Positions 20,713 to 60,551 of a stretch of 64,000 nucleotides of DNA are shown here, piece after piece (position 1 is the stretch's first letter; each line of letters starts with the position of its first letter). Origin of the DNA: Planctomycetota bacterium (lineage in GTDB: Bacteria > Planctomycetota > UBA1135 > UBA2386). The DNA lies in NCBI GenBank assembly GCA_965228735.1, contig OZ245838.1:544001-608000 (forward strand). The letters are read 5' to 3'. A model generated the notes under the pieces. It did no database searches. It was not told the origin of the DNA and was given only the letters and a program-made list of their open reading frames with translations. The translations under genes and the position numbers were made by a program.

Positions 20713-20829
20713 GCGGAACCTCTCGAATGCGGTAGGGATTGCGGTAGTCGCAACCCGAAGAGGCCGCACGACGCCCGCCGCTCGGCGGTTCGCGGTGATC
20801 GAACTAGCGATCGACGGCAGGGTTAAGAA

Positions 20830-20876
20830 TGGAGCGGGTGATCGGGATCGAACCGACGACATTCAGCTTGGGAAGC
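20830..20876 (-). tRNA. 3' half of tRNA-Gly(CCC); att-site remnant, not an intact tRNA
   Basis: Minus strand reads GCTTCCCAAGCTGAATGTCGTCGGTTCGATCCCGATCACCCGCTCCA (anticodon loop, T arm, acceptor 3' strand, CCA). No D arm or acceptor 5' strand upstream. Confidence 0.88.
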
Positions 20877-31436: not shown

Positions 31437-32075
31437 TCAGCAGCACGCCTCACCACGCCAAGCTTCGGTACCCTCGCGAACAACAAGGGCTGCGACCCCT
31501 AGGGCCGCAAGAGGGTCTGCCCACCACCAACCGAACGCGGCGTTGAGAACAATCCCTGACAGGGCGACGATCGAAAGCCACCAGCATGCCAGGGTCTGAA
31601 AGGAGTCGGCTTCAAGCGCTCGGCTCCCCAGAACACGTGCCACGGACGATTTTGCACGCGCTAGCCACCACATGACTGCGATCGAGACTGAGACAAGAAT
31701 GATCCCGACGACGCTCGTCTCAGGGCGATCCCCGTTCCACAGCGCGAATCCAGCATCCACGGAGACGTAGGCAGCAAGGAGAAACAAGGTGCCGGCCACC
31801 AGGCGATGCGCCCGGCGGTCGAGCTTCTCGACAGCTTCCGCCGCAACGGCCGTGTTGCGCCGTTCTCGAGAGAGTCTCCACAGAACGATCAAACCAGAGG
31901 CGCTCTCTACGAAGCTATCAAGGCCAAAGCCGAGCAGCGCGACACTCCCAGCAGCAGCCGCTGCGGAAACGGCGATGACACCCTCGACGACATTCCAGCC
32001 GATTGTCAGGTAGGCGAGGCTCGCTGCGCGCATGAGCGTTGCTGTCCGCGCCTGATCACTTGTCACGATCCGCAT
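31437..32075 (-). CDS. Cation diffusion facilitator-like transporter (TM domain only)
   Basis: WNVVEG, FGLDSFVE, WWWADP; start overlaps the upstream tolC end. Confidence 0.85.
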   Translation of the reverse strand: MRIVTSDQARTATLMRAASLAYLTIGWNVVEGVIAVSAAAAAGSVALLGFGLDSFVESASGLIVLWRLSRERRNTAVAAEAVEKLDRRAHRLVAGTLFLLAAYVSVDAGFALWNGDRPETSVVGIILVSVSIAVMWWLARAKSSVARVLGSRALEADSFQTLACWWLSIVALSGIVLNAAFGWWWADPLAALGVAALVVREGTEAWRGEACC

Positions 32076-33464
32076 CCGTAGCAAGGAGCACGTCGAGCGG
32101 TCGCCCACAAGCAGCCTCCAGCTCGGGGATGCTCTGGGCCACAGACTCAAGCCGTACGACATAGTCACGCCGAGTGGCAAGAAGTCGGTTCTGAGCCTCG
32201 AGGACAGATAGAAAGCCTGTCTTGCCTGCCGCGAACGACTCTCGGGCAAGGTCAAGGCTGGCTTGTTGAAGCGGCAAGAGCTCCTTCTGGTAGAGGCGAG
32301 CGGTTTCCTGCGCCATCGCGTAGCGTTCGTACGCACCCCGTACTTGTTGGGACACGTTCTCGGACACTCCCTCAAGGCGACGTATCGCCTGAGAGAAGCG
32401 CAACTCGGCCTTGGCAATCTGTGCTTGGTTTCGGTCGAAGATCGGAATCTCAAGCCGGAATGCTGGACCCAGTTCTACATCGCTGCCGACCGTTTCGAAG
32501 GCCAAGCCACCACCTAGCTTGCGCAGCTGCCGACGCCGCTCAAGAGGCACTGCGTTGCCTGCGGCCTCGACGGCCTTCTTCGCCGCGCGCAGGTCAAGCC
32601 GGTGTTCTTCGGCAACTGCGAGCAGTCTCTTGAGGTCAACGCTCCACTCCGGTGGCGTGAGTGGTGGACTCGTGAGCTCAAGTTCCTGCGGCGGTACGGA
32701 AACACCCAGCACCATCGCCAGGCGTCGTTTCGCTTCAAACGAAGCGAAGCTTGTGGAACGAACAAGCACCTGTTGCTCGAGGAAACCGGCGCGCGCGGCG
32801 TTCTCGTCAACCTGCGTCGCAGCACCGGCAGCCTTGCGTTCACGCGTGAGTTCGAGGAACTCCTGTGCGGTCTTGAGATTCTCTTCTGCAACAGCGAGAG
32901 AAGCACTCGAAGCAACGGCCGTGAAGTACGCCGACTTCGCCTGAGCCGCGAGCGTGACCGCGCGGCGAGCAACCTCGAGCACGGTTCGGTCTACTTGGCT
33001 TTCCGCAACCCTCGTGCGCGCGGGCAAGTGCCAGAGCTCGATGAGATTGTGGAGAAGTCCGCCCTCCATGTTCGTGCTTCCTCCATCGAGTGGAAGCGCA
33101 CCATCAGTTGGAGCGACGGGTTCGAGAGCAATCCAGCCTGCACTGCATCCGCACGCCGCACACCGATCTCGTAGAGCTGTTGCTGCAGAAGTCGATTGTT
33201 GAGAAGGCAAATCTGGACTGCGTCCTTTGAGGTCAACCCATCCTTCATGAGCTCTGCAACCAGCTTGCGCGCACGCTCTTCCTCTCCGGGCTGATAGAGG
33301 GTGTCTTCGCCGGTCGCTGCCTTTACCTCCTCTCGCGCTAGTTCGTAATCCGGCGTTGGGTCTACAGTGGCACATCCGCTCAAGGTGACTAGCAGCGCCA
33401 CAGCAGCGGCCACGAGCGTTTGCCGACGGAGCCGCCCAGTCTCCAATCTGGTAGTTGTTGCCAT
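32056..33464 (-). pseudogene. TolC/CzcC-like OMF with a 1-nt deletion near 33092
   Basis: N-terminal frame (lipobox LSGC, LLSNPSLQLMVRF) switches frame to PLDGGSTNMEGG...IPIFDRNQ... Confidence 0.8.
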
Positions 33465-33465
33465 G

Positions 33466-36400
33466 CTACGCAACCTCCCCGTCGGTTGTTGCTGGGACCT
33501 TCTTCATGACAAGCAGGTAGAGGATCGGCAGCACAAAGAGAGTCAGGACGGTTGACGTCAGCACACCTGCCACCACAACCGTCGCAAGTGGTCGCTGCAC
33601 CTCGGCACCGACTCCCGTGGAGATCGCCATCGGAAGAAAACCGACAGCATCCGTGATAGCCGTCGCCAGAACGGGACGAAGCCGTTGCTGTGTGGCTTCT
33701 GTGATCGCCGAACGGAGCTCGTTGCCCTGAGCAAGGAAAGAGCGAATGGCCGATACGAGGATCTGTCCGTTCAAGACGGCGATGCCTCCGAGCGCGATGA
33801 AGCCCACGGCGGCGCTCACGCTGAACGGCATTCCGCGCAGCCAGAGCGCCAAGACACCTCCGACAGCGGCGAAGGGAATCCCGGTATAGATCAGCAGGAC
33901 CTCCCGAAGACTCTTCAGGCTGAAGAACAGCAGGAAGAACACGAGAAGGAGCGTGACCGGAACAACGATCATGAACCGCACCTTCGCGTTGGCCAGATTC
34001 TCAAACTGACCGCCCCAGTTGATGACGTAGCCATCGGGGAGCTCCAGTTCGTTGGCGATCCGCGTCTGCGCTTCCTCAACAAACGAGGCAACATCGCGGC
34101 CGGCTACGTTGCACTGGACGCGGATCAGCCTTCGACCCCACTCACGGTTGATCGTCGAGATGCCCTCTTCTTCTGAGACGTCAGCCACGCTTCGCAGAGG
34201 TAGGCGAAGCCCAGATTTCGTTGGAATCAGCGTCGCACGTAGAGCGTCGGCATCGCCCCGGTGGGAATCCGGCAACCGGACAGCCAACGGGAACTTACGT
34301 TGTCCCTCGAAGACTTCGCCGACACGGCGTGTCCCGATGACCTCCACGAACTCGAGCACTTCCCGTCCTGACACTCCAACGCGGGCAAGTGCGTCGGGGT
34401 CCATGCGGATGCGGAGCGTTGGTTGCCCCGTGACCTGATCGACAGCGACGTCTGACTGTCCGGGGATGTCGACAAGAATGCGCTGTACCTCGTCACTGAT
34501 GCGCACGAGCTCGTCGAAGTCGTCGCCGTAGATCTTGATGCCGATGTCTGAACGGATGCCCGACGCCATCTCGTTGAGGCGCATCTCGATCGGCTGGGTT
34601 GCGATGATGTTCACGCCGGGTAGGTCGTCCACCAGGCTCTGCATGGCAGCGCCGAGCTCAGTCTGCGTGCTGGCCCTCTTCCATTCGCTTCGGGGCTTGA
34701 GCGACAAGAAGATGTCGGTCAGCTCGGTGCCCATGGGGTCAGTGGCGATTTCAGCTGTCCCGATGCGGCTCCAGACGTGCCGAACCTCGTCCGGAAAGTT
34801 CTCGAGCAAGAGCTTCTCGATGCGCGTGTTGTAGCGAACGGACTCCTCAATAGAGACACCGGCCAGGCGGATGGTGTTCAAGACCACCGCCCCCTCGCTC
34901 AAGCGCGGGATGAACTCTCCTCCCAGCCGTGTCGCAGTCCATCCGGCGAACACTAGAAGCAGCATCGCTCCGCTGAGAACGAACCACCGCAGCCGCATCG
35001 CTGCCGCAAGGAACCAGGCAAAGGCGCCGTTCATCGCGCGAGCGATAACACCCTCTCGCTCCCGAACACGCTTCGGAAGGAAGTAGTAGCCAAGGACCGG
35101 TGACAGGGTGAGGGCGATCAGCAGTGCCCCGCCAAGGGCGAAGATGAACGTCCACGCCATCGGGCGGAACATCTTTCCTTCGATTCCCTCGAGCGCGAGC
35201 ACGGGGAAGAAGACCACCATGATGATGGCCATGCCGAAGACGATCGGTCGAGCCACCTGCTTGCCCGACTCGGTGATGACCGCGAGACGCTCATCTTTGG
35301 TCAGCGGTCTCTTCAGCTCACGCGCACGCTGAGCCAGGTTCCGCATGTTGGCCTCGGTCATCACCACCGAGCCGTCGACGATGATGCCGAAGTCGATTGC
35401 ACCAAGGCTGAGGAGGCTTGCCGCGATCGCGAAGTGGTACATGCCGATCAAGGCAAACAACATCGCGAGTGGGATGGCGAGGGCTACCAGGAGACCGCCG
35501 CGAATGTTGCCAAGCAGTACGAAGAGCACGACGATGACGAGCAAGGCTCCGGCCAACAGGTTGTGCTGCACGGTTCCGATCACCTCGGTTGTCAGCTCGG
35601 TGCGGTCGTAGACGACTTCAACGACAACGTCTTCGGGGAGCGATCTCCGGACACCTACGAGCCGCTCCTTGAGCTCTTCGGTGACGGCCTGGGCGTTCTC
35701 GCCCATCAGCATGAAAGCAAGGCCTAGCACGACTTCGCCGCGACCGTTCGCCGTGACCGCACCGCGCCGGATCTCGTGGTCGACCCGAACCTCTTGCGCG
35801 ACATCTCGAATGCGGATCGGCGCACCGTCGAATGCGGAGACAACGATGTTCTCGATCTGGTTGACGGTTGAAACACGCCCGAGGCCATGCACGAGCTGCG
35901 ACTGCCCACCCGACGTGAGCACGCCACCACCGACGTTCTGATTGTTTTTCTCGAGCGCTTCGAAGACGTCCCCAAGGGTGAGGTCGTATTTGAGCAACGC
36001 CTCGGGCGAGACAACCACGTGGTACTGCTTCTCGTACCCGCCCCACGAGTTGACCTCAGCGACACCAGGAACCTTGCGGAGCTCCGGTTTGACGACCCAG
36101 TCGTGAAGGGTTCGCAGCTCTTCGAGCGTCCTGCGCGGGTTCTCCGAACGAAGGACGTAGTGGAAGATCTCTCCGAGCCCGGTGGAGATGGGGCCGAGCT
36201 GCGGACGCTCAATGCCTTCGGGAAGCTCTACTGTCGCCAGTCGTTCGGAGACGTACTGGCGCGCATCGATGATCCTCGTGTCGTCATCGAACGTCGCGAC
36301 GACCTGGGACAGTCCAAACTTGGATATGGAACGAACATCGGCCAGACCAGGAAGACCGCCGATCGAGAGCTCGACTGGAAGGGTGAGCTGCTGCTCAATC

Positions 36401-36594
36401 TCTTCCGGATTGAGCGCGGGGGCCACGGTGTTGATCTGGACCTGGACGGGTGTTGTGTCCGGGAAGGCGTCAACTGGCGTACGCGTTGCCGTGTAGATCC
36501 CGCCGCCGACCAGGGCAAATCCCAGCAGCAAGAACAGGAGGCGGTTGCGAAGTGAGAACTCGACGAGGCGCTCAAGCATGGAGTCCCCGTTCAC
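33466..36594 (-). CDS. czcA: CzcA-family heavy-metal RND transporter
   Basis: VDAFPD, LGAIDFGIIVDG, RLRPVLATA, GAEVQRPLATVV. Confidence 0.93.
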   Translation of the reverse strand: MNGDSMLERLVEFSLRNRLLFLLLGFALVGGGIYTATRTPVDAFPDTTPVQVQINTVAPALNPEEIEQQLTLPVELSIGGLPGLADVRSISKFGLSQVVATFDDDTRIIDARQYVSERLATVELPEGIERPQLGPISTGLGEIFHYVLRSENPRRTLEELRTLHDWVVKPELRKVPGVAEVNSWGGYEKQYHVVVSPEALLKYDLTLGDVFEALEKNNQNVGGGVLTSGGQSQLVHGLGRVSTVNQIENIVVSAFDGAPIRIRDVAQEVRVDHEIRRGAVTANGRGEVVLGLAFMLMGENAQAVTEELKERLVGVRRSLPEDVVVEVVYDRTELTTEVIGTVQHNLLAGALLVIVVLFVLLGNIRGGLLVALAIPLAMLFALIGMYHFAIAASLLSLGAIDFGIIVDGSVVMTEANMRNLAQRARELKRPLTKDERLAVITESGKQVARPIVFGMAIIMVVFFPVLALEGIEGKMFRPMAWTFIFALGGALLIALTLSPVLGYYFLPKRVREREGVIARAMNGAFAWFLAAAMRLRWFVLSGAMLLLVFAGWTATRLGGEFIPRLSEGAVVLNTIRLAGVSIEESVRYNTRIEKLLLENFPDEVRHVWSRIGTAEIATDPMGTELTDIFLSLKPRSEWKRASTQTELGAAMQSLVDDLPGVNIIATQPIEMRLNEMASGIRSDIGIKIYGDDFDELVRISDEVQRILVDIPGQSDVAVDQVTGQPTLRIRMDPDALARVGVSGREVLEFVEVIGTRRVGEVFEGQRKFPLAVRLPDSHRGDADALRATLIPTKSGLRLPLRSVADVSEEEGISTINREWGRRLIRVQCNVAGRDVASFVEEAQTRIANELELPDGYVINWGGQFENLANAKVRFMIVVPVTLLLVFFLLFFSLKSLREVLLIYTGIPFAAVGGVLALWLRGMPFSVSAAVGFIALGGIAVLNGQILVSAIRSFLAQGNELRSAITEATQQRLRPVLATAITDAVGFLPMAISTGVGAEVQRPLATVVVAGVLTSTVLTLFVLPILYLLVMKKVPATTDGEVA

Positions 36595-38192
36595 TTGTCA
36601 TCGACACAGCCAGCGCCGAGCCTCGACTTGAGGAACTCGGACATCACGGTGAATGCTCCTGTAGCAACAACAGGTTCGTCCGCGCGCAGACCTTCGACCA
36701 CCGCAACGATGTTGTTCGACGGTCGCTCGACCGTGGCGACGCGACGCAACGAGTAGAGGTCGTCTTCGAGTTTGACGAAGACGTAGAGCTTCTTCTCGAA
36801 CCGCTGGATGGCTTCCTTGGGCACATCCACTGCGCTTCTGGCATCCGAAGTGAAGACGATCGCGTCGCCGAACATCCCTGCGCTGAGCTTCCGGTCAGGG
36901 TTGCCGACCACGGCACGTGCCCGCAGCATGCGAGTCTTCTCGTCGATCGAGGTGTTGACCCATGTGATCTCACCACGTGACGCCTCGCTGGAAAGGCCGT
37001 GGAAGGTCGCCTCCACGCTCAGACCACTCTTGATGAGACCCGCGCGATCGGCAGGGATCGAGAGCGAGAGCCACATCGAGCCGAGATCCGCGAGAGAGAA
37101 TACGCTCTTGCCTGGCTCAACAGCTTCGCCGACCACCGCACTTCTCTCGACCAATGTGCCCTCGTATGGAGCGCGGACCAACAAGCGAGCTGAGGTGTCG
37201 CGATCCTTCTTGATCGCTGCAACCTCATCCGCCGTGAAGCCATAGTTGAGGAGTCTCTGTCTTGCTGTACTCAGCGTGAGCTCAGCGGTCTTGCACGCAG
37301 CATCGGCCTCCTGCACCTCCTTCTCCGAAGAGATGCTCTTCTTCGCCAGGCGCTTCTCTCGCTTGCAGGCAACCTCTTTCAGGTCGAGGTCGACCACGGA
37401 CGAGACGAACGCAGCCTTCGCGCTCGCTACTTCGGTGGAGTGCACTTCCACCAGAACATCTCCCGCCTTCACGTCCGCACCGACATCGACGAGCACTTTG
37501 CGCACGATCCCCGCGGCCAGTGGCGTGATGCGGGCCAGAGCATTCTGGTTGTAGGAGATCTCGCAGATGGCCGGAACGCTTTCCCGCACCGTGGCCTGGC
37601 GGGCGGGAACTGTCTGCACACCTGCCTTCGCAGCTGCACGGGCCGACTCGAAACGCACCTTGAGTTCGTCGCCTGGCTGCAGTTCTGCCGTGCGTTGTGG
37701 TTGGCAGATGCCGCAATCCGCCTCCGGCACCCCGTGTTCCTTACAGAAAAGACCTGGAACAGTGCGGGGGGGAGCATCCAGTTGCGCGCCCTTCTTGTCC
37801 TTCGGCTGCTTCTCGTCCTTGGAGTCTTTCTTCAGCTCGGGATGGCAGAGAAAGCACTCGTCCTCGTAGAGGCCGTGCTCTTCGCAGTAGAGGCGGCCCT
37901 TCTCCTCGAGCTGCGGCTGGCACATCCAGCATCGATTCTCGTAACGGCCGTGCTCCTTGCACCACAGGCGTCCTGACTCACGCTTGCTTGGATCACAGAT
38001 GAAGCACGTCTCGCCGGGTGTGTCGTGCTTGTGTGCGGTGCTCGTCGGATTCCTGCCAGTCGCGGTCGATTCACCTGCAGCAGGTTCGGAACCAGGACCA
38101 GGAGAGGGCTCCTGCCCACAACCGGAAAGGGCAACGCTCAAGGCGAGCATGCCGGCAAGAAACCAAGACCTTCCTCGTTTGTTGGTAGACAT
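36591..38192 (-). CDS. czcB: CzcB-like membrane-fusion lipoprotein with N-terminal Cys/His repeats
   Basis: Lipobox LSGC; three C-x-EH-x6-C-x2-C-x-P repeats; MFP core (VRAPYEG, DEKTR, GMF). Confidence 0.85.
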   Translation of the reverse strand: MSTNKRGRSWFLAGMLALSVALSGCGQEPSPGPGSEPAAGESTATGRNPTSTAHKHDTPGETCFICDPSKRESGRLWCKEHGRYENRCWMCQPQLEEKGRLYCEEHGLYEDECFLCHPELKKDSKDEKQPKDKKGAQLDAPPRTVPGLFCKEHGVPEADCGICQPQRTAELQPGDELKVRFESARAAAKAGVQTVPARQATVRESVPAICEISYNQNALARITPLAAGIVRKVLVDVGADVKAGDVLVEVHSTEVASAKAAFVSSVVDLDLKEVACKREKRLAKKSISSEKEVQEADAACKTAELTLSTARQRLLNYGFTADEVAAIKKDRDTSARLLVRAPYEGTLVERSAVVGEAVEPGKSVFSLADLGSMWLSLSIPADRAGLIKSGLSVEATFHGLSSEASRGEITWVNTSIDEKTRMLRARAVVGNPDRKLSAGMFGDAIVFTSDARSAVDVPKEAIQRFEKKLYVFVKLEDDLYSLRRVATVERPSNNIVAVVEGLRADEPVVATGAFTVMSEFLKSRLGAGCVDDK

Positions 38193-38232
38193 CACAATCG
38201 TTCTCTCCCTCGTCGCGAAAAACGGGCGAGCG

Positions 38233-38631
38233 CTATCTCGCTTCGGCACCCACGAACTTCTCAAGCACGCTCTCGGCAATGTCGAGCCATGACGAGTCGG
38301 CTAGCCGGTAGTAGGCGAGCTTGCCTTCGGCGCGGAACTCAACTGCTCCGAGGTTGCGCAGCTCTCGGAGGACCTGCGAGGTGCCGGACATGGAGATCCC
38401 GAGCACTTCACGGAGGTCGCAGACACACAGCTCCCGACCCTGAAGGGCCTTCAGTACGCGCAACCGGTTCGGGTTCGCGAGGACTCGAAAGGCGTCAGCG
38501 ACTCGTTGGAGCTCTGTGGTTGCGGGAAGCGACGCCTGAGCTTCCGAGACCATCGAGCAATCGACCTGGTTGATCTCGCAGGCCCCCTCGCGGGCCTTGG
38601 GGCTCTTCGACTTCGGCGTATCGTTCATCAT
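38233..38631 (-). CDS. ArsR/SmtB-family metal-responsive repressor
   Basis: FRVLANPNRLRVL, ELCVCDL, SGTSQVLRELR, YYRL. Confidence 0.93.
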   Translation of the reverse strand: MMNDTPKSKSPKAREGACEINQVDCSMVSEAQASLPATTELQRVADAFRVLANPNRLRVLKALQGRELCVCDLREVLGISMSGTSQVLRELRNLGAVEFRAEGKLAYYRLADSSWLDIAESVLEKFVGAEAR

Positions 38632-38647
38632 TTCAGTATATGATGAA
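38624..38647. promoter_or_regulatory. Inverted repeat, probable ArsR/SmtB operator
   Basis: TTCATCAT-N8-ATGATGAA, an AT-rich palindrome overlapping the arsR start codon. Confidence 0.65.
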
Positions 38648-39198
38648 TCGACCGCGCAGGGCAAGTTGCTGAATGAAACTCTCGTGGGAAGTCACCAGGA
38701 GGTGGTCCGAGGGCGGGTCAAGGCCCCTTGGGATCGGGATTTACGCGCTTCTGAGCTGACCATCAGCGATCGCGAGGAGCTCCCTCGTACCTCATGCGCC
38801 GCGCCCATGACGACGAGAATGCGCTTTCGGCCCTCTTCGGGCCGGATGTTGGAGCCCAGAGGCAGACGTGGCGCTTGCGGGGAGGCAGTCGAAGGGCGTC
38901 TCGTTCTAGCGCTAGATCGCGGATGGCCCTAAACTGGCACAGACCACACTTGGCGAGCGGGATCATTCGGGGGAGAAGTCGTTCGTCATGCCGAACCAGC
39001 GGCGATCAAGTGGCCGGCGTGAGGCTAGCTCCGCGCCTGCGGCCGTTGCGCTCGGGTGAGTTTCGCCTACATTGCGGCCCCTGGGACTCCTTCAGGTGGA
39101 TTTCCTGAGCGGCACCTGGTTGTCAGGGTGAGGCGCTTTCGCGTTATCTCGGCCGTGCATCCGCCTAGCCCAGTCGAGAGAGATCCATGAGAGGACAT

Positions 39199-39822
39199 AT
39201 GAGAACCACCGTGCTCGCACTGCTATGCGGAGTCGTCTTTGGAGGCGTCCAAGCAATCGCTCAGGAGACCAAGAACGTTCCTGCGGCGAAGTCGACTACC
39301 CCGGCCACATACGTCGTCGGCGTGACGGGGATGACCTGAGGCGGTTGCGCCTCGGGGGTCCGTGAGACCCTCGCCAAGATCGCAGGCGTGAAGAGCGTCG
39401 AGATCGACCTCAAAGCCAAGACCGCGACCGTAGCCATGAAGAAGGGGGGGCTGACGCGCGAAGCTGTCGTCAAGGCGCTCGTGGACACCAAGTTCAAGGT
39501 GAGCTCCTTCGCGTCGGTCAAGGCTACGCGCATGACTCCGAAGGGCGTCTACGTCGTGGGCGTGACGGGAATGACTTGAGGCGGTTGCGCCTCGGGGGTC
39601 CGTGAGACCCTCGCCAAGATCGCGGGTGTGAATAGCGTCGAAGTCGACCTCAAGGCCAAGGCCGTGACCGTAGCCATGAAGAAGGGCTCGCTCACTCGCG
39701 AGGCTGTCGTCAAGGCACTTGCAGACACGAAGTTCAAGGTGAGCTCCTTCGCCTTGGTCGAGAAGAAACCGGCGGCGAAGAAGGCTGCCAAACCAGGCAT
39801 CAAGGCCGAGAAGAAGCTCTGA
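39199..39822 (+). CDS. Exported tandem-HMA (CopZ/MerP-like) selenoprotein with two in-frame UGA codons (GMT-U-GGC x2), 207 aa
   Basis: GAGGA RBS, signal peptide, TGA at 39337 and 39577 each in the place of the first Cys of GMTCxxC, two ~80-aa repeats in one frame, Lys/Ala-rich tail. Confidence 0.85.
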
Positions 39823-39875
39823 GCTGGGTCGGCTAGACGATCGGGCCCCGGGCGCTGGCTGCGGGCCAATGCAAG

Positions 39876-39900
39876 GCCAACGCCACGACGTGGCGTTGGC
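39876..39900. terminator. Hairpin between convergent genes
   Basis: GCCAACGCCAC-GAC-GTGGCGTTGGC, a perfect 11-bp stem; no U tract. Confidence 0.45.
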
Positions 39901-39957
39901 GCTCAGCTGCAGCCGTGACGCTTCCCACGTCGCGGTTAGCGTCTCGGTTTCGATTCA

Positions 39958-42900
39958 TCAGCCCGTCGTCGTGTGCTGGCTACCGAGCCGCCGCTCCTTG
40001 ATGGTGCAGTAGAGCACGGGTACGACGAATACCGTGAGCATGGCGATCAGCATCCCACCGAAAGAAGGGATGGCCATCGGGACCATGATGTCGGACCCGC
40101 GGCCCGTCGAGGTCAGGACCGGGATGAGTGCGAGGATCGTCGTCGCGCTCGTCATGAGCGCGGGGCGGATACGCTTCTTGGCTCCCTCCACGACCAAGTT
40201 GTGTATGTCTTCGCGAGACCGCGGATGTGCTCCGCGGAAACTCTGTTCGAGGTAGGTCGCCATCACGACGCCGTCGTCTGACGCGATGCCGAATAGGGCC
40301 AGGAATCCGACCCAGATGGCGACGCTCAGGTTGATGGTGTCGACCTGGAAGAGGGCGCGCAGATTCTCGCCGAACAGGTCGATGTCGAGGAAGCCTCCGA
40401 TGCCGTACATCCAGATAAGGAGGAAGCCTCCTGCCCATGCGACCACGATGCCCGAAAACACCAGCAGCGAGGTCGAGACCGAACCGAACTGGAGGTAGAG
40501 GATCAGGAAGATGACGAACAGCGCGACGGGCAAGACCAGCGCAAGCGTCTTTTGGGATCGGATTTGGTTCTCGTAGCTTCCGGAGAAGCTGTAGCTCACG
40601 CCGGCGGGCAGTACGAACTCGCCGGAGTCGAGCTTCTGCTGTAGGAACGCCTGGCATTCTTCAACAACGTCGACTTCTGCGCTGTCCGCTTGCTTGTCGA
40701 AAACCACGTAGCCGATGAGGAACGTGTCTTCACTCTTGATGGCCTGTGGTCCGCGAACGAAGCGAATCTCCGAGAGCTCAGAGAGCGGGACCTGCGCGCC
40801 GGTCGGAGTGGGAACAAGGATCTCTCCGAGGCTCTCGGGCGTGTCGCGCAACTCCCGCAGATACCGGACGCGTACCGGGTACCGCTCACGACCCTCGACC
40901 GTCGTGGTGATTCGCTTACCGCCGATGGCTACCTCGATGACCTGTTGCACCGAGCCGACATGGAGGCCATACCTGCCGAGCGCCTTGCGGTTGAGCTCGA
41001 TCTCGAGGTAGGGCTTGCCAACCAGGCGGTCGGCGGTCACCGTCGGAGCGGATACGCCTGGGACCTGCTTCAGGTAGCGCTCCAGCTGCACGGCGACCTC
41101 CTCGATCGTAGCGAGATCGGGCCCTTTCACCTTGATGCCCATCGGCGCTCGCATGCCGCTTTGCAACATGACGATGCGCGCCGCGATCGGCTGCAGTTTC
41201 GGGGCAGATGTCGTGCCGGGTATCTCGGATGCCGCGACGATCTCGTCCCAGATGTCGTCGGGAGATTTGATGTGATCGCGCCACTGTCGGAACGGGCGTC
41301 CGTTCGTGTCGGGGATCAGGTCGCCTTCTTCGTTTCTCGCAAACTCGCCCGTTTCCTCGTCGAAGCGGAAGCTGATGCGGTCTCCGTCTTTATCGGTGAT
41401 GTATTCGGGCCGATAGTTGATGACCGTCTCGATCATCGAGATCGGGGCTGGGTCAAGAGGAGTTTCAGCTCGACCCAGCTTCCCGACGACTGACTCGACC
41501 TCCGGTATCCTGGCGATGGAGGTGTCCTGATACTGCAGGACCTCCATGGACTCACCGATCGACGCATGGGGGAGTGTCGTCGGCATGAACAGGTAGGAGC
41601 CCTCGTCCAGTGGTGGCATGAACTCCTTGCCGAGCCCCGGGAACACGCTCGCCATCCGTTGCCAGGGTGCACTCTGTCGCATGAACTCGGGCGCAAAGCC
41701 GAAGACGCGATCGAAACCGAACCAGGAGCAGGCGCCGAGAGCGACGATGAGGGTTGGCGCCGACAGGAACAGGAGCTTGTGTCGCAGGCACCATCGCAGG
41801 ACGCGCGGATAAACGCGTTGGAAGGCGAGGAACGTTCCTAGCAGTCCGCCGATCAGAACCCCGACGAATGCCAGGTTCTTGAGGAACCCGCGACTGGGAC
41901 CGAGCGGTAGCCACGATTGCGTTAGTTCGATCAGAACGAATAGCGCAACAGCCAGGCTGACGACGATCGGCCCCGAGTTACCGGTCCAGCGCGGGATCCT
42001 GCTCTTGAGGAGTTGGAATGCCGCAAATGCCAGGAGCAGACTCCCTCCGACGATGCTTGTTGTGATAGCTACGACGAGTCCTGCGGCGGCAAGCCCCGCA
42101 TGCATGAGAGCCTTGGTGCGCGTCGAGCGAATCGAGCCCGTGAACAGGATGTGGGCCGCCGGTGGGATCACCGTCAGTGCGACGATGATCGATGCAACCA
42201 GGGCGAACGTCTTGGTGAAGGCGAGTGGTTGGAAGAGCTTGCCTTCGGCGCCCGTCATCGTGAATACGGGCAAGAAGCTGACGACGGTCGTCGCGACGGA
42301 GGTGATGACGGCGCTGCCAACCTCGCGTGTAGCACGGAAGATCGTCTCGATGGGAGGTGTGTCGGGATCCGCTTCCCTGAGGTGGCGCAGGACGTTCTCA
42401 CAGATGATTACGCCCATGTCGACCATCGTGCCGATGGCGATTGCAATACCCGAAAGCGCGACGATGTTCGCCGCGACCCCGAACGTTCGCATGGCGATGA
42501 AGCACATCAGTACGGCGACTGGGAGCAAAGCGCTGATGAGCAAGGAGCTCCTCAGGTGAAGCACCATGATGAGCATCACGATCATCGTCACGAGGATCTC
42601 CTCGACGAGCGCTGAGTTGAGCGTGCCGAGAGTCTCGTAGATGAGGTCCGTTCGGTCATAGAACGGGACGATGGTCACCTGGCTGAGGTTCACGCCGGTA
42701 GGCCATGCCGACTTCTCATTGGATCTCAAGAACGGCACCCAGGCCGCTTGGTTGAGGTCGTCACCATCGAACGCCTCGAACCCCTGTAGGGCTGCGAAGC
42801 CGCGTAGCGCGTCTTTCGACGTTGCCGTGAAGTCAGCGATTGCCTTCGTCGGCAGTCCAGGGGCGATCTCCGCGATCTTCGCCTTGGTGTTCTTGATCGC

Positions 42901-43808
42901 CTGAAGCGGGTTGAAGCCGTAACGGACCACAACGACACCGCCAACGGCTTCTGCGCCGCCCTTGTCCAACGCCCCTCGACGCAGGGCGGGCCCCTTGGTG
43001 ACATGGCCGACATCGCGGACGCGGATCGGCACGTTGTCGTTGACACGTACGACGGTCTCCTCGATGTCCTCGACGTTCTTGACGAAGCCAAGGCCGCGGA
43101 TCACATACTCGGCTCGGCTGACCTCGATCGTGCGAGCGCCGACGTCGAGGTTCGACATCTTCGTTGCCGCGAAGACCTGATCCAGCGTGACGCCGTGTGC
43201 CCGCATGGCGTCCGGATCGACGTCGATCTGGTATTCCTCGACGAATCCACCGATGGAGGCGACCTCGCTTACGCCTTCTGCAGCAAGCAGCGTGTAGCGG
43301 ACATACCAGTCCTGCACACTGCGCAACTCCTGTGGCCCCCATCCTCCAGTGGGGTTGCCGTCGGGGTCGCGCCCCTCGAGTGTGTACCAGTAGACCTGAC
43401 CCAGTGCCGTGGCGTCCGGTCCGAGCGCTGGCTGGACGTCCGCGGGCAAGGTGCCTCTCGGCAGGCTGTTGAGCTTCTCGAGGACGCGGCTTCTGCTCCA
43501 GTAGAAGTCGATGTCCTCATCGAAGATGATGTAAACGGTCGAGAAGCCGAAGAACGAGTAACTGCGTACCGTCTTGACACCGGGCAGCCCGAGAATACGA
43601 TCTGCTGGTTCTCACCGATGTCGGGGATGGCGTCGACCGGAACCGGATCGCGTGGCAAGCCACCTGCTTTCCAATCGAACGGGGCGACGAGCGCACCCCA
43701 TCCCATGACGCCGAGCACAAGGAGGAAGACGATCAGCTTCTTCCGTAGGCAGAACCAGATCAGGCGGTCCAGGAACGACTTCGGTTCGTTGGTGAGATCA
43801 CTTGCCAC
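39958..43808 (-). pseudogene. cusA: CusA-family Cu/Ag RND transporter with a frameshifting deletion near 43594
   Basis: VDAIPDIGENQQIVF joins out of frame to LGLPGVKTVRSYSFFG; the segment normally between them is missing. The remainder is intact (AIGTMVD, KEFMPPLDEG, RIRPALMT). Confidence 0.85.
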
Positions 43809-46137
43809 GGAGGTCCTCGCGAGGCTCGAGGGTTTCGATGGCGGAGCCGCAATCCAGCATCTTGGCGCCGTAGTAGGGGTTCTGCACCTCGTCCGAACCC
43901 TGCAACCAACGCGCGCCGCGGCCGTCGAATGCCATTGGGCAATGCATGACACGGACCTTCGCAGGCGAACCGAGTGCGCGGAGTGCCGTTTCAATACCCT
44001 TGGACACTTGCTCGAACGCCGCTCGCGCACCTTCGATGTCGTCGCCCTCGGAAATCTGGCGCGCGCTCGTGACCACTGCGTTCGTCAACGATTGCCACGC
44101 GACTTGCGCCGGTGCTGGTAGAGACGTCGACGAAACGCCGTCGGTTGCGGCGGCCAGCTTCGACGCTGCCGACTTGGCCTTGCTGAGATCGTCAGCTGCG
44201 AGGGCCGAATGCAGATCAGAGTAAGCCTCCCAGTTCCGTCGAAGCGCTGAGCGCACCTCCTCCGGCAACTCGACGGGCGTACCTGACGGGGATTCTGCCG
44301 TCGTTTGGAAGTGCTTCCGCATCATCTCGACCGACGTGGTGAGCTTCCCGAGGTTTGACTTCGCGGTCGACGTGTCAGGCGAAGCACTGCCTTCGAATGC
44401 GTCGTTCGACAGGCGCATCGACAGCTCCATCCACATCTTGTGGGAATCCCCCTCGAACAGCTGCATCCGGGTTTCGGCAACGGCCTTGCCGAGTTGCTCG
44501 AACCGTTGTTTTGCTTCGTGGAGGTCGCCTGCATCTACGGACGCGGTGATGTCAGCGTAGACCCGCTCGATCAGCTGCAGTCGAGTCCGCGCGCCCGCCG
44601 AGAGCATGGAAGCGTGGCTCTGACCCGAGGGCATCGTTGCTGGCTTCGTTCCGGCTCCGCCGCCGTGGTTGTGGCCGCCCGCGGGCTGGCCGCCCGCAGG
44701 GCTCATCATGCTCGGTCTGGCCTGCAACTGGAGAGCGCTGTCGATCTTGAAGTTGCCTTCGGCCACCACGAGCTCGTTTTCCTGGAGGCCGTGAAGGACG
44801 ACGTACTGGTCGCCGGCTCTCGGTCCGAGCACGACCTCCCGACCCTCGTAGGTCGGAGTCTCTCGGTCGGGGAGCTCGACGTAGACGATGGCGCGCGTTC
44901 CGGTCACCAAGGTGGCGGAGACCGGCACAACGAGCGGGGCTTCGTCCTGAACTTCAGTTGCGGGGACGTAGCCGAGTTCGTGGGCAGGGACGAGATCCAT
45001 GCCGCACACGTCGCACTTGCCGGGGCCGTCCTTCACGATCTCGGGATGCATGGGGGAGATCCACTTTCCGACGAGGGATGGATCCATGACCTTGCCAGCG
45101 CCAGCGATCCGGGCCGCGACGGTTGCGTGCACGAACATGTCTGGCTTGAGCAGGCCGTCGGGATTCGGCACGTTCACGCGGACCTTGACGGTGCGTGTGC
45201 GACGGTCGAGGACGGGGTCGATGAAGGAGATTCGGCCGTTGAACCGTCGTCCGCCGTAGGCCTCGGTCTCGAACGAGACCTGCTGACCATATCGAAGCCA
45301 CTCCAGGTCGCTCTCGTATGCGTCCAGTTGCACCCAGACGTGACTGAGGTCCGCGATCGTGAAGATGCGCGTTCCCGTCTGCACGTACATGCCCTCCTGG
45401 GCACTACGGTGGATGACGAGGCCGGATGAAGGTGCGTGGATCGTGACGTGCTCCTCGGCAGATCCCCGTTTCTCGATTGCCGAGATCTGCTCCTTCGAGA
45501 GGCCCCAGAGGCGCAGCTTCTCTCGTGCCGAGTCGATGGTGCCCTGAGCCGAGGCTCTCAGTGATTCGAACTCGCTCTTCTGCAGGTCTCCAAGCGATGC
45601 TAGCGCCTGTAGCAGCTCCTCCTGCGCGCTATAGAGCTCAGGGCTGTAGAGCTTCACCATGTGGTCACCCTTGCGCACGGTGACCCCGGTGAAGTCTACG
45701 TAGAGCTCGTCGATTCTCCCTGGAACCCAAGCGGTGATGTAGCCGAGTCGTGTCTCGTCGTAGGTCACCTTGCCGACGAGGCGCACCCTTGCATCGGGGA
45801 AGCGTCGCTCGACGGGGACGGTTCGAACGCGCATGAGGGCTCGCTGTTCCGGACGTATCGTCAGTTGTCGTAGCCCACCCGAGTCGCCGCCGCTCGAGGC
45901 CCGGATGAGATCCATCCCGCAGATGGGGCACTTGCCCTGCGATGGCATGCGGATCTGTGGGTGCATGGAGCAGGTCCACACTTCGGCTGCAGCGGCATGG
46001 CCTTCGTGCGTAGTCGTCGAGTGCTCGGGGTGCGTGGGCGGTGTTGCATCACCCCATAGGAGGTAGCCGACTCCGAGCCCGGCGATGGTTGTGGCGACGA
46101 GCAGCGCGGTCAGACGGGTGGTCTTGCTTACGTTCAT
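43798..46137 (-). CDS. cusB: CusB-family MFP with heavy-metal-binding domains and C-terminal DUF3347-like region
   Basis: WTCSMHP..CPICGMDL, ISPMHP..CDVCGMDL, MFP core, HCPMAF...NPYYG. Confidence 0.9.
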   Translation of the reverse strand: MNVSKTTRLTALLVATTIAGLGVGYLLWGDATPPTHPEHSTTTHEGHAAAAEVWTCSMHPQIRMPSQGKCPICGMDLIRASSGGDSGGLRQLTIRPEQRALMRVRTVPVERRFPDARVRLVGKVTYDETRLGYITAWVPGRIDELYVDFTGVTVRKGDHMVKLYSPELYSAQEELLQALASLGDLQKSEFESLRASAQGTIDSAREKLRLWGLSKEQISAIEKRGSAEEHVTIHAPSSGLVIHRSAQEGMYVQTGTRIFTIADLSHVWVQLDAYESDLEWLRYGQQVSFETEAYGGRRFNGRISFIDPVLDRRTRTVKVRVNVPNPDGLLKPDMFVHATVAARIAGAGKVMDPSLVGKWISPMHPEIVKDGPGKCDVCGMDLVPAHELGYVPATEVQDEAPLVVPVSATLVTGTRAIVYVELPDRETPTYEGREVVLGPRAGDQYVVLHGLQENELVVAEGNFKIDSALQLQARPSMMSPAGGQPAGGHNHGGGAGTKPATMPSGQSHASMLSAGARTRLQLIERVYADITASVDAGDLHEAKQRFEQLGKAVAETRMQLFEGDSHKMWMELSMRLSNDAFEGSASPDTSTAKSNLGKLTTSVEMMRKHFQTTAESPSGTPVELPEEVRSALRRNWEAYSDLHSALAADDLSKAKSAASKLAAATDGVSSTSLPAPAQVAWQSLTNAVVTSARQISEGDDIEGARAAFEQVSKGIETALRALGSPAKVRVMHCPMAFDGRGARWLQGSDEVQNPYYGAKMLDCGSAIETLEPREDLRGK

Positions 46138-46141
46138 CTTG

Positions 46142-47545
46142 CTACTTCTCCTTGTCGGACGATTTCACGTCCGCGCTCTTCGTGGGGATCGCGTGGCCGA
46201 CGAGGCGCTCGAGTACCGCTCGCCACTGTCCGTGGTCGGCACGGGATCGCTCGAATGACAGTTCGAAGGACAGCAGCATCCGCTGCGCATCCACCAGGTC
46301 GGAGAAGCTTCCATTCCCCGCGCTGTAGGCTGTCTGAGTGGTCGCGAGCGACTCGCGCGCCTTGGGAAGCAGTGTGTCGCGATACAAGGCAATCTGTCGT
46401 TCTGCGTCGCGGATGCGGAACAGCGCAGTCGCCGCTTCTGCCTGAAGCTTGTTGAGCAGGTCTCCTCGTCTCAGTGCCGTCGAAAACTGGCGGGCTTTGG
46501 CTTCACGAACGGCCGCGTTGTACTTGCCGCGTGCAATTGGAAGATTGAAAGAGACGCCAGCAATGACGGCATCGTCGCCGCTGCCCGCCACTCCAGGCAT
46601 GCGAGCATCGCCGGTGGCCAGGTAATCGACACCGAAGGTGAAGTCGGGGTAGAAGTCCTTCTCGGCACGCAGGGCGGCTGCCCTTGCGGCGTCGATTTCG
46701 TGCCGCATCGCCATGAGCTCCGGGTTGCTGGTGGCAATCCACCCGAGAACCTCTTCGTCGGGGGCCCCGAGCGGATGGACGTCGGCCTTCTTTGGGAACG
46801 GGATCGGAGTCGATTTGCGTCGATTGAGCGCCGCGTTCAATCGTGCGATGAATGGCGACTTGCGATCGTCCAGGCTGGCCAGCTGGTTCTCCAGCTGGCC
46901 GAGTTCCACCTGGGCGCGGATGATATCGGGGTGGTTGGCGGCTCCTGCCCCGTAGCGGGCGCGGGCTACTCGCTCAAGCTGCTGGATGAGGTCGCGGTTG
47001 CCGCGGACGACTTCGACGGCACGCCCCAGATGGTAGTACTCCAGGTAGGCATCGATGACCTCTGCGACAAGCGAGTCTTTCTTCGCCTCGAACCTCTCCT
47101 TAGCGGCACCTGCAGCGCCCGAGGCGATCTGGCCCTGCAACTCGAGTTTGCCGAACCAAGGCAGTGTCTGTGATAGGCCGAACGCGTGCTGTTGCGGACC
47201 GACGCGGGTCTCGACTTCCTGGATGTAGTACCGGTAGCTGAACCTCGGATCCGGGAGCGCCGTCACCTGGGGGATGCGCTCCATCGCGGCGATGTAGTCC
47301 TGGAACGCGGCTTCCAAGCCGGGGTTGTTCAGTAGCGCGTACCGGATGTAGGTATCGAGATCGGAGTTGATTGTGAAGTCGGGCAGTTGCGGCCGTTCGG
47401 CGCGCATTCCGGCTGGTGCGCTGGTGTACGGACCGATGGGCGTCGTGCGTGGATGCATGCTGCACGCGGCAATCGTGGGTAGGAGGCAACAGAGGGCGTT
47501 GCCGACGCGGACTCGCGTCCACCGACGTTGTGCTGTCGTCTTCAT
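46142..47545 (-). CDS. TolC-family OMF (CusC role)
   Basis: Lipobox-like IAAC, ALPDP, LPWFGKL, DFYPD. Confidence 0.9.
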   Translation of the reverse strand: MKTTAQRRWTRVRVGNALCCLLPTIAACSMHPRTTPIGPYTSAPAGMRAERPQLPDFTINSDLDTYIRYALLNNPGLEAAFQDYIAAMERIPQVTALPDPRFSYRYYIQEVETRVGPQQHAFGLSQTLPWFGKLELQGQIASGAAGAAKERFEAKKDSLVAEVIDAYLEYYHLGRAVEVVRGNRDLIQQLERVARARYGAGAANHPDIIRAQVELGQLENQLASLDDRKSPFIARLNAALNRRKSTPIPFPKKADVHPLGAPDEEVLGWIATSNPELMAMRHEIDAARAAALRAEKDFYPDFTFGVDYLATGDARMPGVAGSGDDAVIAGVSFNLPIARGKYNAAVREAKARQFSTALRRGDLLNKLQAEAATALFRIRDAERQIALYRDTLLPKARESLATTQTAYSAGNGSFSDLVDAQRMLLSFELSFERSRADHGQWRAVLERLVGHAIPTKSADVKSSDKEK

Positions 47546-53063: not shown

Positions 53064-55166
53064 TCAGAAGGTCAAGACCAGGCCAAGGCCATAGCCATGG
53101 TCGGAGTGATACGAGGTCGAGAAACCCAGGTTCTGCGTGATCGTGTAATCGATGCCGACGAGCCACTCGAATTGCGTATTGGTGTCGTATTCGACGGAGG
53201 TGCCGATCCCAAGACGGTCGGTAAGCTGGAGCCCCTTGTCGAGTGAAAGTCGGAAGTCTCCCCGGCTGTCTACGCTGAGGTTTGACATCACGAGGTAGGG
53301 CAGGCGATAGCGCACGCCCGCGAATGCGCGACTCGTTGCCCCGTCACCATCAGCGTAGCGCCAGCCCAACTCGGTGGCGAAGTTCTGATCGATGTAGCGT
53401 GACCATCCGAAATCGACCTCGATGTTGTCCTCGTGTCCACCGTCTCGGTGGTCGTCGCCGAACGCCGATGGCAGTCCGATGTCCCACCGGGTGAAGAAGT
53501 CGTTCCGCCCCTTCATGAGCATGGCACGGCCCATGGTCATGTGGTTCTGTACCGTTGCATCGAAGAATAGGTAGGCCGGTTCGAGGAGCTTCGGGTCTAC
53601 GGTGGGTTGATACGTCGGATCCTGCTGGTAGCTGAACACGCGGGCCATGCCGGCATCCATGTGGTAGAGCAGGTGGCAGTGGAAGAACCAGTCTCCGCCC
53701 TCTTCGTCGGCGACCCACTCGATCGTGCGCTTGCCCATCGGGGGGACGTCCACGGTGTGCTTGAGCGGGGAGCGTTCGCCCTGCCCGTTGAGCACGCGGA
53801 AGAAGTGACCGTGCAGGTGCAGCGGATGGTGCATCATCGTGTCGTTGATGAGCTGGATGCGCAGCACCTCGCCCTTGCGGACGCGGATCGTCGAGTTCTC
53901 GGCCAAGGTCTCGTTGTCGAAGCCCCACAGATACCGGCGCATGTCGCCGGTGAGGCGCATGGTCAGCTCGCGGACTTCGGTGCCCGGTCCGGCGATGGTA
54001 GTGTCGGAGACTGCACGCAGCAGGCCGTAGGGCGCGAATGGGCGTTCCGCAGTAGCGGCTTCCAGCGCGCGCTTTGGCATCTGGCTTGCGAGCCCCGCGG
54101 CAAGCATCTCGTCCATCACGTATAGGTTCGCCCGCGGCGGGTCGACGGCCTCGATCAGCGGCCCATCCCCCAACAGCATCGAAGCGTGTCCGCTGCCATC
54201 TTGCGCCGTGGCTCGGATCTCGAGCGTGGACCGGGTCTCTGGCATGGTAACCACGACGTCGTACGTCTCCGCCATGCCGATGAGGAGGCGCCGGACCTCG
54301 ACCGGCTCTACGCGAATGCCGTCGCTGCCCACGATCGTCAGGTTGCCTTCGCCAGCGCCGAGGTAGAAGTAGGTCGAGGCCCCGGCGTTAACGATGCGCA
54401 GCAGGACGCGTTCACCCGGGCGGGCATCGAGCTTCAGTGCTCGCTTGCCATTGGCCAGGAACGCGTCGTAGCCCACGTCCGACAAGTCCATCGCCGGCAT
54501 GCGGTCCCCCTCGCGCTCGAAGTAATCCGAAACGGCGCCTCGCCGCCAGGCTCCGAGCAGCGACTGTTGCGTCCCCTTCTTCACCGAATACCACTCGCTG
54601 CCGCGCATCAGCCAGCGCATGACCGTGGTCGGATCATCGTCGGTCCAATCGGCCAGGACGACGACGTGCTCACGATCGAACGCAACATCGGGCTTTCTGG
54701 GTTCGATGACGATCGCACCCTGGACGCCCAGTTGCTCCTGCAGCCCTGTGTGCGAGTGGTACCAATAGGTGCCCGATTGCCGCAGCCGGAACTCGAATGT
54801 GTGTTCGCCGCCAGCAGGGATTGGAGGGGTGGTCAGGTATGGGACTCCGTCCATTTCGTTGGGCACGAGCAGCCCGTGCCAGTGGATCGAAGTCTCCTCG
54901 GATGGTAGCCGGTTCTTGACCGTGATTTGGGCGAGGTCGCCTTCTCTGAATCTCAAGACCGGGCCAGGGGAGGTGCCGTTGACGGTGAGCACGGTAGTCG
55001 CTGTGCCCGCGGGTGCGCCCGGAGTCTCCGCGATTACGAGCTCGTAGCGGACGACGTCCTTGCCCGAGGGAACCTCAGAGCCCGTGGCCTGCGCAGTGCA
55101 CTCTTGGGCTGCCGTAAACATGATGAGTGCAAAGACGGGGAGCAGGCTCCATGGAGGTCGGTTCAT
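53064..55166 (-). CDS. Multicopper oxidase (CopA/PcoA-like) with a C-terminal beta-barrel-like extension
   Basis: HWHG, WYHSH, HPLHLHGH, HCHLLYHMDAGM. Confidence 0.93.
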   Translation of the reverse strand: MNRPPWSLLPVFALIMFTAAQECTAQATGSEVPSGKDVVRYELVIAETPGAPAGTATTVLTVNGTSPGPVLRFREGDLAQITVKNRLPSEETSIHWHGLLVPNEMDGVPYLTTPPIPAGGEHTFEFRLRQSGTYWYHSHTGLQEQLGVQGAIVIEPRKPDVAFDREHVVVLADWTDDDPTTVMRWLMRGSEWYSVKKGTQQSLLGAWRRGAVSDYFEREGDRMPAMDLSDVGYDAFLANGKRALKLDARPGERVLLRIVNAGASTYFYLGAGEGNLTIVGSDGIRVEPVEVRRLLIGMAETYDVVVTMPETRSTLEIRATAQDGSGHASMLLGDGPLIEAVDPPRANLYVMDEMLAAGLASQMPKRALEAATAERPFAPYGLLRAVSDTTIAGPGTEVRELTMRLTGDMRRYLWGFDNETLAENSTIRVRKGEVLRIQLINDTMMHHPLHLHGHFFRVLNGQGERSPLKHTVDVPPMGKRTIEWVADEEGGDWFFHCHLLYHMDAGMARVFSYQQDPTYQPTVDPKLLEPAYLFFDATVQNHMTMGRAMLMKGRNDFFTRWDIGLPSAFGDDHRDGGHEDNIEVDFGWSRYIDQNFATELGWRYADGDGATSRAFAGVRYRLPYLVMSNLSVDSRGDFRLSLDKGLQLTDRLGIGTSVEYDTNTQFEWLVGIDYTITQNLGFSTSYHSDHGYGLGLVLTF

Positions 55167-56837: not shown

Positions 56838-56917
56838 CGGGGCGTCCTCTGGCACGGTAGGTGTAACGTTCGCCCAGTCTGGTCGTCAGCGTGGACATGC
56901 AAAGCGAACGGAATCCC

Positions 56918-60248: not shown

Positions 60249-60551
60249 ATGAAGCATCTCTGGATTGCCTGCGCAGTCATCGTCGCGCTGTCATTCGCTG
60301 GCTGCAGCACGGTCAAGCACGACTCTCAGCTCACGTCTACCCAAGTCCACCTTGTCCTGGACAAGACGCCGACTTGAGGCGGTTGTGCCGCCACCGTGCG
60401 TGGTGCCGTGACCAAGCTCCCTGGCGTGTCGGGAATCGAGGTCGAGCCTGGTTCGGCCGATATCGTCGTCAGCCTTGACCCCAATGCGACAACTGTAGAG
60501 CAGTTGCTTGCGGGAATGGACGCCGCTGGGCAGTCGGCAAAGCGCAAGTAG
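60249..60551 (+). CDS. HMA-domain lipoprotein with in-frame UGA (TPT-U-GGC), predicted selenoprotein, 100 aa
   Basis: Lipobox FAGC; TGA at 60375-60377; read-through gives GGCAATVRGAVTKLPGVSGIEVEPGSADIVVSLDPNATTVEQLLAGMDAAGQSAKRK*, a complete HMA pattern. Confidence 0.82.

Follow-up and report, generated by a model that had tools for sequence, protein, structure and literature searches.

The window, that is, the whole stretch of DNA analysed here, comprises 64,000 nucleotides of the single contig of a 7.19-Mb, 93% complete planctomycete genome (G000). It contains a gene in which one frame of 207 codons runs from ATG 39199 to a final TGA at 39820-39822 across in-frame TGA triplets at 39337 and 39577, exactly as an earlier note on this DNA had read it. 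Both internal TGAs are set in a GMT-U-GG-C motif (U, selenocysteine, Sec), where Sec would occupy the first metal ligand position of an HMA loop. The features referred to below are the following, in window coordinates unless marked G000:C1.

20827..20876, + strand: attL of a mobile element, a 50-bp direct repeat matching a segment of tRNA-Gly(CCC)
32056..38279, - strand: RND metal-efflux genes in the order B-A-C, czc-like (name inferred; profile search)
38233..38664, - strand: ArsR/SmtB regulator, divergent from the Sec gene (profile search)
39034..39902, + strand: cassette of upstream region, gene and hairpin, 86% nucleotide identity with loci L089, L121 and L163
39199..39822, + strand: candidate exported tandem-HMA selenoprotein gene, 207 aa, U47 and U127 (alternative start 39187)
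39199..39261, + strand: predicted signal peptide with basic start, hydrophobic core and A-I-A before Q22 (read from sequence)
39310..39522, + strand: HMA domain 1 (PF00403, repeat comparison, fold model)
39337..39339, + strand: UGA 1, putative Sec47 of a UxxC motif (reading frame, alignment)
39353..39373, + strand: SECIS-like hairpin 1, 8 bp, loop CGUGA at 39361-39365, 21 nt past the UGA, -12.5 kcal/mol
39550..39762, + strand: HMA domain 2, 88% nucleotide identity to domain 1 (repeat comparison)
39577..39579, + strand: UGA 2, putative Sec127 of a UxxC motif (reading frame, alignment)
39593..39613, + strand: SECIS-like hairpin 2, identical to hairpin 1
39763..39819, + strand: Lys/Ala-rich tail, predicted disordered (sequence, model)
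39876..39900, no strand: perfect 12-bp inverted repeat between the Sec gene and the convergent cusA-like gene
39958..47545, - strand: cusCBA-like RND operon, convergent on the 3' end of the Sec gene (profile search)
53064..55166, - strand: multicopper oxidase
56891..59182, + strand: Cu-type P1B ATPase, 1.1 kb upstream of the Sec-HMA lipoprotein gene
60249..60551, + strand: second candidate Sec-HMA gene of the element, a 100-aa lipoprotein with lipobox F-A-G-C
G000:C1:1929-2510 (-), 3694729-3695055 (-), ~494019-494300 (-) and ~501120-501600 (+): four further candidate exported Sec-HMA-fold genes

The read-through protein matched the HMA model PF00403 over two stretches with 81.9 bits (cut-off 24.8) in a profile search. 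In agreement with this, and with the two repeats described previously, the gene holds two 213-nt copies placed 240 nt apart that are 88% identical and differ by 15 synonymous and 8 non-synonymous codon changes, each with its TGA in place of the first HMA Cys. A single-sequence structure model consisted of two beta-alpha-beta-beta-alpha-beta (ferredoxin-like) units (pLDDT 68, pTM 0.39), with best fold matches to the tandem domains of ATP7B/CopA, MerP (1osd), Atx1 and CopZ. Membership of the HMA family is thus supported both by the PF00403 score and by the predicted ferredoxin-like fold, but in view of the pTM we make no claim about the arrangement of the two domains or the Sec-Sec distance. The N-terminus reads as an export-type start, in line with the signal peptide proposed earlier, and contains Cys10 but no lipobox. 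The proposed start codon and ribosome-binding site held up only in part: the GGA of the claimed site ends just 3 nt ahead of ATG 39199, and the in-frame ATG 39187, chosen by gene callers (P0008), is an equally possible start. The read-through product has no His. The inverted repeat downstream of the gene is likely its terminator (z-score -3.66 for 39870-39910). Contigs from RNA libraries (X15, X17, X19) reach across the first UGA and lie over the gene and not its flanks, but these libraries may hold DNA, and none of the RNA-library contigs listed spans the second UGA; they constitute a weak hint of expression.

The genome sequence GGN-ATG-ACN-TGA-N6-TGY occurs in G000 at just these two sites, and when the 2079 TGA triplets of the mobile element were ranked by coding potential and SECIS hairpin the two internal TGAs came first, which together is more than expected by chance. 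Both TGAs are the same in the genome of another genus (G013) and in DNA sequencing runs from two other studies (X8 and X10), and a further run (X9) spans the first TGA unchanged, ruling out an assembly error. On both sides of each UGA synonymous changes outnumber replacements.

The machinery for Sec insertion is present in the host. In G000 selA is the neighbour of selD, which has an in-frame TGA of its own; selB and tRNA-Sec(UCA) are present as well, so that all of selA, selB, selC and selD are accounted for. In the order as a whole selA scored above cut-off in 60 of 61 genomes; the sole exception (G028, 73% complete) nevertheless has selB and tRNA-Sec, as do all five carriers tested, G028 included. 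UGA is the stop codon of 2042 of 3096 long ORFs in G000, and the only UCA anticodon among its 67 tRNAs is that of tRNA-Sec. A recoding of UGA to Trp was considered and rejected on these grounds; there is no UCA-reading tRNA-Trp, and at the loop UGA aligns with Cys and never with Trp.

Each internal UGA is followed by a hairpin that conforms to the bacterial SECIS consensus given in the consulted part of PMC13188914 (a G at loop position 1 or 2, a distance of 16-37 nt from the UGA and a folding energy of -7.5 kcal/mol or lower). No comparable hairpin follows the terminal TGA (best -4.5 kcal/mol), and read-through past this codon was dismissed, there being no SECIS and an extension that is not coding-like. 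Among 26 domains from 15 proteins 88.5% of the cells pair, with 52 two-sided changes; none of 500 shuffles matched the real value, and slid controls gave 30-45%. The hairpin loop falls on an Arg codon, which reads CGT in 53 of the 59 single-Sec domains and in 2 of 21 Cys domains; CGT makes up 7.8% of Arg codons in the genome and 14.3% in the element. The codon count is based on domains from the protein search, two of them reassigned manually from Cys to Sec, and leaves out pattern-selected metagenome loci and 10 UxxU-type domains; as the sequences are kin and not independent, both it and the covariation count overstate the certainty. Single hairpins had weak folding z-scores (-0.3 to -1.7), folding no better than shuffles, and the SECIS assignment therefore draws its support from covariation and codon choice. 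Searching the whole genome for UGA plus a CGTG hairpin alone proved too noisy to be of use (324 matches). With sel machinery, alignment of UGA with Cys and SECIS hairpins all in place, the gene has the marks of a selenoprotein gene, and both internal UGAs are almost certainly read as Sec by SelB. The Sec decoding claimed in the earlier note is accordingly borne out by machinery, hairpins, conserved UGAs and Cys counterparts alike.

The window gene has many relatives. A protein search of 61 related genomes gave matches in 25, with TGA at the aligned loop in 13 translated loci besides that of G013, and an alignment search across 301 genomes of the phylum gave matches in 142, most of the top ones with TGA; the related records are labelled Planctomycetota. 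Using a DNA pattern containing UGA, 58 metagenome loci were collected, 55 of which stay open for at least 45 codons past the UGA as HMA proteins. The loops of 147 distinct domains comprise 38 UxxC, 37 Sec-only, 21 UxxxC, 5 UxxU and 5 UxxxU, the rest being 26 CxxC and 15 other loops. A second Cys or Sec is missing from roughly one in three Sec domains (37 of 106, plus two misclassed), and what the family conserves is therefore not a site with two ligands. The proteins have one to three domains and one to four Sec (one domain in L121 and L163, two in L089, three in L105 and L144; four Sec in L150). Judged by a crude hydrophobicity heuristic, an N-terminal hydrophobic stretch of export type is found in 73 of 76 Sec-HMA proteins versus 13 of 27 Cys ones. 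Among the Sec-only paralogues, 13 of 23 domains match Pfam HMA, the fold being assigned from Pfam and profile searches.

Homologues with TGA and homologues with Cys at the codon in question were both found. L152 (U) and P0027 (C) form a Sec/Cys pair with 53% identity. Cys forms of the window protein itself are distant relatives only (32%), such as P0104, a counterpart with the same layout of signal, two HMA domains and Lys tail. In a quick tree (74 columns, without starred support) the window domains group with planctomycete Sec forms, in a clade separate from the Sec-MerP forms of mer operons.

In agreement with the claim that gene calling breaks the gene into pieces, public protein sets hold only fragments that stop at the UGAs. 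In a search of 5.8 billion predicted proteins, the 390 candidates 114-364 aa long included no match at E 1e-10, and the nine short matches in this set are pieces between the UGAs. Against 1.84 billion representatives, the best matches of full length had no more than 42% identity, and an exact look-up of nine guessed fragments found no match. Taken by its sequence, the window gene is part of a larger, hidden family of predicted exported Sec-HMA proteins.

Several variants within this family deserve mention. L150, L153, L146, L151, L154, L156 and L149 (in genomes of families f60 and f37) carry UxxU or UxxxU motifs with up to four Sec, beside Cys paralogues; having no CGT loop, such forms must use another hairpin. 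At one and the same locus a single HMA repeat is found in L121 and L163 and two in L089, reflecting either collapse of the repeat in assembly or recombination between repeats. A relative with three UGAs is stored publicly (P0017) with W at each of them, the result of a mis-chosen genetic code.

G000 itself has, in all, six such genes predicted to encode exported Sec-HMA proteins. The second gene of the element, the lipoprotein gene overlooked by the earlier note, has its UGA at 60375-60377 in a PT-U-GG-C motif, followed by a weaker hairpin with CGUG (folding z-score about 0). All 29 matches listed for this gene, from 19 of the 61 related genomes, contain one TGA; copies adjoin CopA in two of nine neighbourhoods (G036 and G025), the others lying among housekeeping genes. 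The four further genes encode one two-Sec protein without a second Cys, two UxxC lipoproteins and one UxxU lipoprotein. Altogether 8 of the 11 HMA-fold matches in G000 carry Sec, while the CopZ/CopA domains keep Cys. About 25 more UGA candidates with hairpins were noted in this genome, among them thioredoxin-, peroxiredoxin-, Grx-, MsrA-, ArsC- and rhodanese-like genes, FG-GAP-like U-C/C motifs and a GHPLGCT-U motif. G000 is a Planctomycetota-type genome with a large selenoproteome; the searched passages of a 2026 review do not mention Planctomycetes.

The gene resides on a 79-kb element extending from window position 20827 to G000:C1:643706, to the right of the window. The element is 99.98% identical in G013, a member of another genus, while the flanks on both sides are unrelated. 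Between the two copies there are 10 substitutions, two indels of 1 nt each, one deletion of 70 bp and an insertion of IS256 type, and so few differences indicate a very recent transfer. Near its right end are genes for a tyrosine integrase, a TrwC relaxase and a TrwB-type coupling protein, and it also carries a ParA-like gene; a crude Walker-A scan of the long ORFs, bearing on whether the element has a type IV secretion system of its own (ICE) or lacks one (IME), returned only the coupling protein, the relaxase and a ClpX-like ORF. Its cargo consists of three RND systems, a CDF transporter, Zn/Cd-type and Cu-type P1B ATPases, a multicopper oxidase, ArsR and a two-component pair. With integrase, tRNA att repeats, relaxase, coupling protein and metal cargo, it is the mobile metal-resistance island that had been suspected. 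It most resembles the integrative mobilisable elements at tRNA genes, with which it shares integrase, att repeats, relaxase, coupling protein and the ParA-like gene, but from which it differs in carrying two putative selenoprotein genes. No plasmid match was found at E 1e-12. No sel gene was seen on the element, the sel loci lying elsewhere in G000, and its selenoprotein cargo would therefore work only in Sec-decoding hosts. On the left it adjoins a further low-GC region (window 1-20826 and G000:C1:470000-544000) with an integrase of its own (19438-20862), primase-like and IS genes, and a second copper gene set.

Two genes of the element are damaged in G000 only: the czcC-like outer-membrane gene is frameshifted by a 1-nt deletion at 33092, and the cusA-like gene lacks about 70 bp at 43593. 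As both are whole in G013 and the missing cusA bases are present in runs X8 and X9, these are strain lesions or assembly errors.

As to the arsR-czc genes, the divergent arrangement described in the earlier note is real, whereas a conserved linkage is not found. The closest orthologues (L089, L121 and L163) have only the ~870-bp cassette in common with the window and adjoin a multicopper oxidase, so a special tie to arsR-czc is unsupported. Co-regulation by the divergent ArsR was rejected, the flanks differing in the orthologues; a promoter scan gave one weak site, pointing to arsR. More generally, of the 31 metagenome loci that are 3 kb or longer, 12 have metal-gene motifs and 19 are untagged, and native planctomycete tandem genes, like most planctomycete relatives, lie among housekeeping genes and not metal genes. 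Single-domain UxxC relatives are found inside merR-merTP-merA-(Sec-HMA)-merB-like operons (L104 and L119). In two sets of loci (L104, L112, L119 and L109; L113, L088, L101, L120 and L127), operons of mer-like type encode an exported UxxC protein with a single domain behind merA, or behind the gene for a CopZ N-terminal-type Fe-S chaperone.

HMA-fold selenoproteins as such are not new, and the novelty claimed in the earlier note is reduced to that extent. Table 1 of PMC13188914, with 119 families, includes the UxxU protein NF041115 as well as MerT-like and UxxC P1B-ATPase selenoproteins, and the consulted part of the GOS survey (PMC2398784) has a table row 'Mercuric transport protein MerP' with 2 sequences, a mercury-transport selenoprotein that could be compared with ours by that row only. 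NCBIfam also has NF045683. What appears to be new is the exported tandem form: none of the 119 rows describes exported HMA proteins of the tandem UxxC or the Sec-only kind, and no exported tandem HMA family appears in the consulted parts of PMC9312934, PMC2398784, PMC1976440, bioRxiv 10.1101/2022.07.06.499078 and PMC13326102. The literature search found no description of the family; Haft and Tolstoy 2025 (mSystems) and the content of BSepDB lay outside it and may list the family.

By score the window protein passes neither of the two relevant selenoprotein models. It resembles NF041115 (UxxU_metal_bind; E 8.7e-20) in its HMA fold and a putative Sec at the first metal ligand, but reaches 70.7 bits against a cut-off of 95, and whereas that model describes a 74-aa single UxxU domain, the window protein has a predicted signal peptide and two UxxC domains with one Sec each. 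NF045683 (MerT_CopZ_Se, MerT/CopZ fusion-like) is likewise a mercury/copper-transport selenoprotein with HMA or MerT parts, but the window protein has no MerT membrane domain and scores 53.2 versus 375 bits. MerP (TIGR02052; PDB 1osd and 1afi) is an exported HMA protein with a GMT-x-x-x-C loop and a TM score of 0.86 by target length; the window protein differs by Sec for the first Cys, by its tandem layout, by score (58 versus 92.55 bits) and by a host without merT or merA. CopZ/Atx1 and the N-terminal tandem domains of P1B ATPases (CopA 2rml, ATP7B 2ew9) share fold and tandem layout but are cytoplasmic, whereas the window protein has an export signal and no ATPase; the CopZ models NF047957 (84.2/85), NF033795 (82.2/91) and NF033794 (70.9/95) all fall under cut-off with scores summed over the two domains.

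We consider the exported protein to be, on balance, a soft-metal binder of the periplasm, most likely for Cu(I)/Ag(I). SelB would insert Sec at both UGAs, and cleavage of the signal peptide would give a basic exported protein of 186 aa and 19 kDa. Each U-G-G-C loop would bind one soft ion through a selenolate and a thiolate, in the manner of the CxxC of MerP and CopZ, and the protein would buffer Cu(I)/Ag(I) outside the cytoplasm for the efflux systems of the element. Hand-over of metal to its RND or ATPase systems may also occur, although we rate this below metal binding. That the loops bind metal is probable from the fold, the loop itself and the repeated recruitment to Cu and Hg clusters. 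Sec is more ionised than Cys and a softer ligand. Among the HMA domains, Sec is nearly confined to predicted exported ones, and it may serve there to hold a soft-metal site in an ionised, usable state under oxidising conditions.

The main rival, which we regard as unlikely, is a periplasmic redox protein with the HMA fold as scaffold, in which U-G-G-C would cycle between selenol/thiol and selenenylsulfide, or the two Sec would form a diselenide, for peroxide reduction or repair of oxidised thiols under metal stress. UxxC is a common redox motif, and G000 is rich in thioredoxin- and peroxiredoxin-like UxxC candidates. The consulted part of PMC13188914 expects most uncharacterised selenoproteins to be redox proteins. 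Many relatives are Sec-only (G-G-U-S/A/G), having lost the resolving Cys and the MT motif, and most lie outside metal gene clusters. However, the GMT-U-x-x-C metal loop is complete in the window copy, extra copies turn up repeatedly in Cu and mer clusters, and no reductase partner is linked.

Soft-metal binding is also preferred to two weaker alternatives. One is the role of MerP, in which Hg(II) is captured and delivered to MerT so that MerA can reduce it; this would fit the exported HMA fold, as in 1osd, and the single-domain UxxC relatives in mer operons with MerA above cut-off (L104, L097). Here it is improbable, with the sub-threshold TIGR02052 score and the separate clade in the quick tree against it; moreover, the near-complete host genome has no MerT match and no MerA above cut-off, making Hg uptake unlikely. 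We give equally little credence to a stoichiometric sink or store, in which Sec repeats trap Hg or Ag for good or hold extracellular selenium: the variable numbers of domains and Sec, and the six Sec-HMA genes of G000, would suit it, but two Sec per 186 aa make a poor store and His/Cys-rich carrier features are missing. Least credible of all, despite the fragments in public protein sets, the other lesions of the element in G000 (czcC-like, cusA-like) and the W residues of the P0017 entry, are UGAs that act as true stops (in a pseudogene or through assembly error) or as Trp codons, given their presence in G013 and independent runs, the excess of synonymous changes around them, their alignment with Cys, the use of UGA as main stop and the tRNA complement.

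The locus thus very likely holds an unannotated double selenoprotein gene on a recently transferred metal-resistance element, with the function proposed on the basis of sequence. It shows selenoprotein genes passing from one genus to another on an integrative element, and a gene class missed wholesale by annotation, which records only fragments cut at the UGAs. To our knowledge, the selenoproteins studied so far employ Sec in redox catalysis with few exceptions. Small soluble HMA proteins with UxxC, together with their Cys counterparts and their Sec-only and UxxU variants, offer a test of Sec as a ligand in metal trafficking, and a test case for Se-Hg or Se-Cu antagonism in marine bacteria. 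Tentatively, they may represent a hidden and diversified class of exported selenium metallochaperones in Planctomycetota and other users of Sec, with Sec as metal ligand and not as redox catalyst, that has been recruited by mobile metal-resistance elements. If so, the full resistance conferred by such an island would depend on the selenium supply and the Sec machinery of its host.
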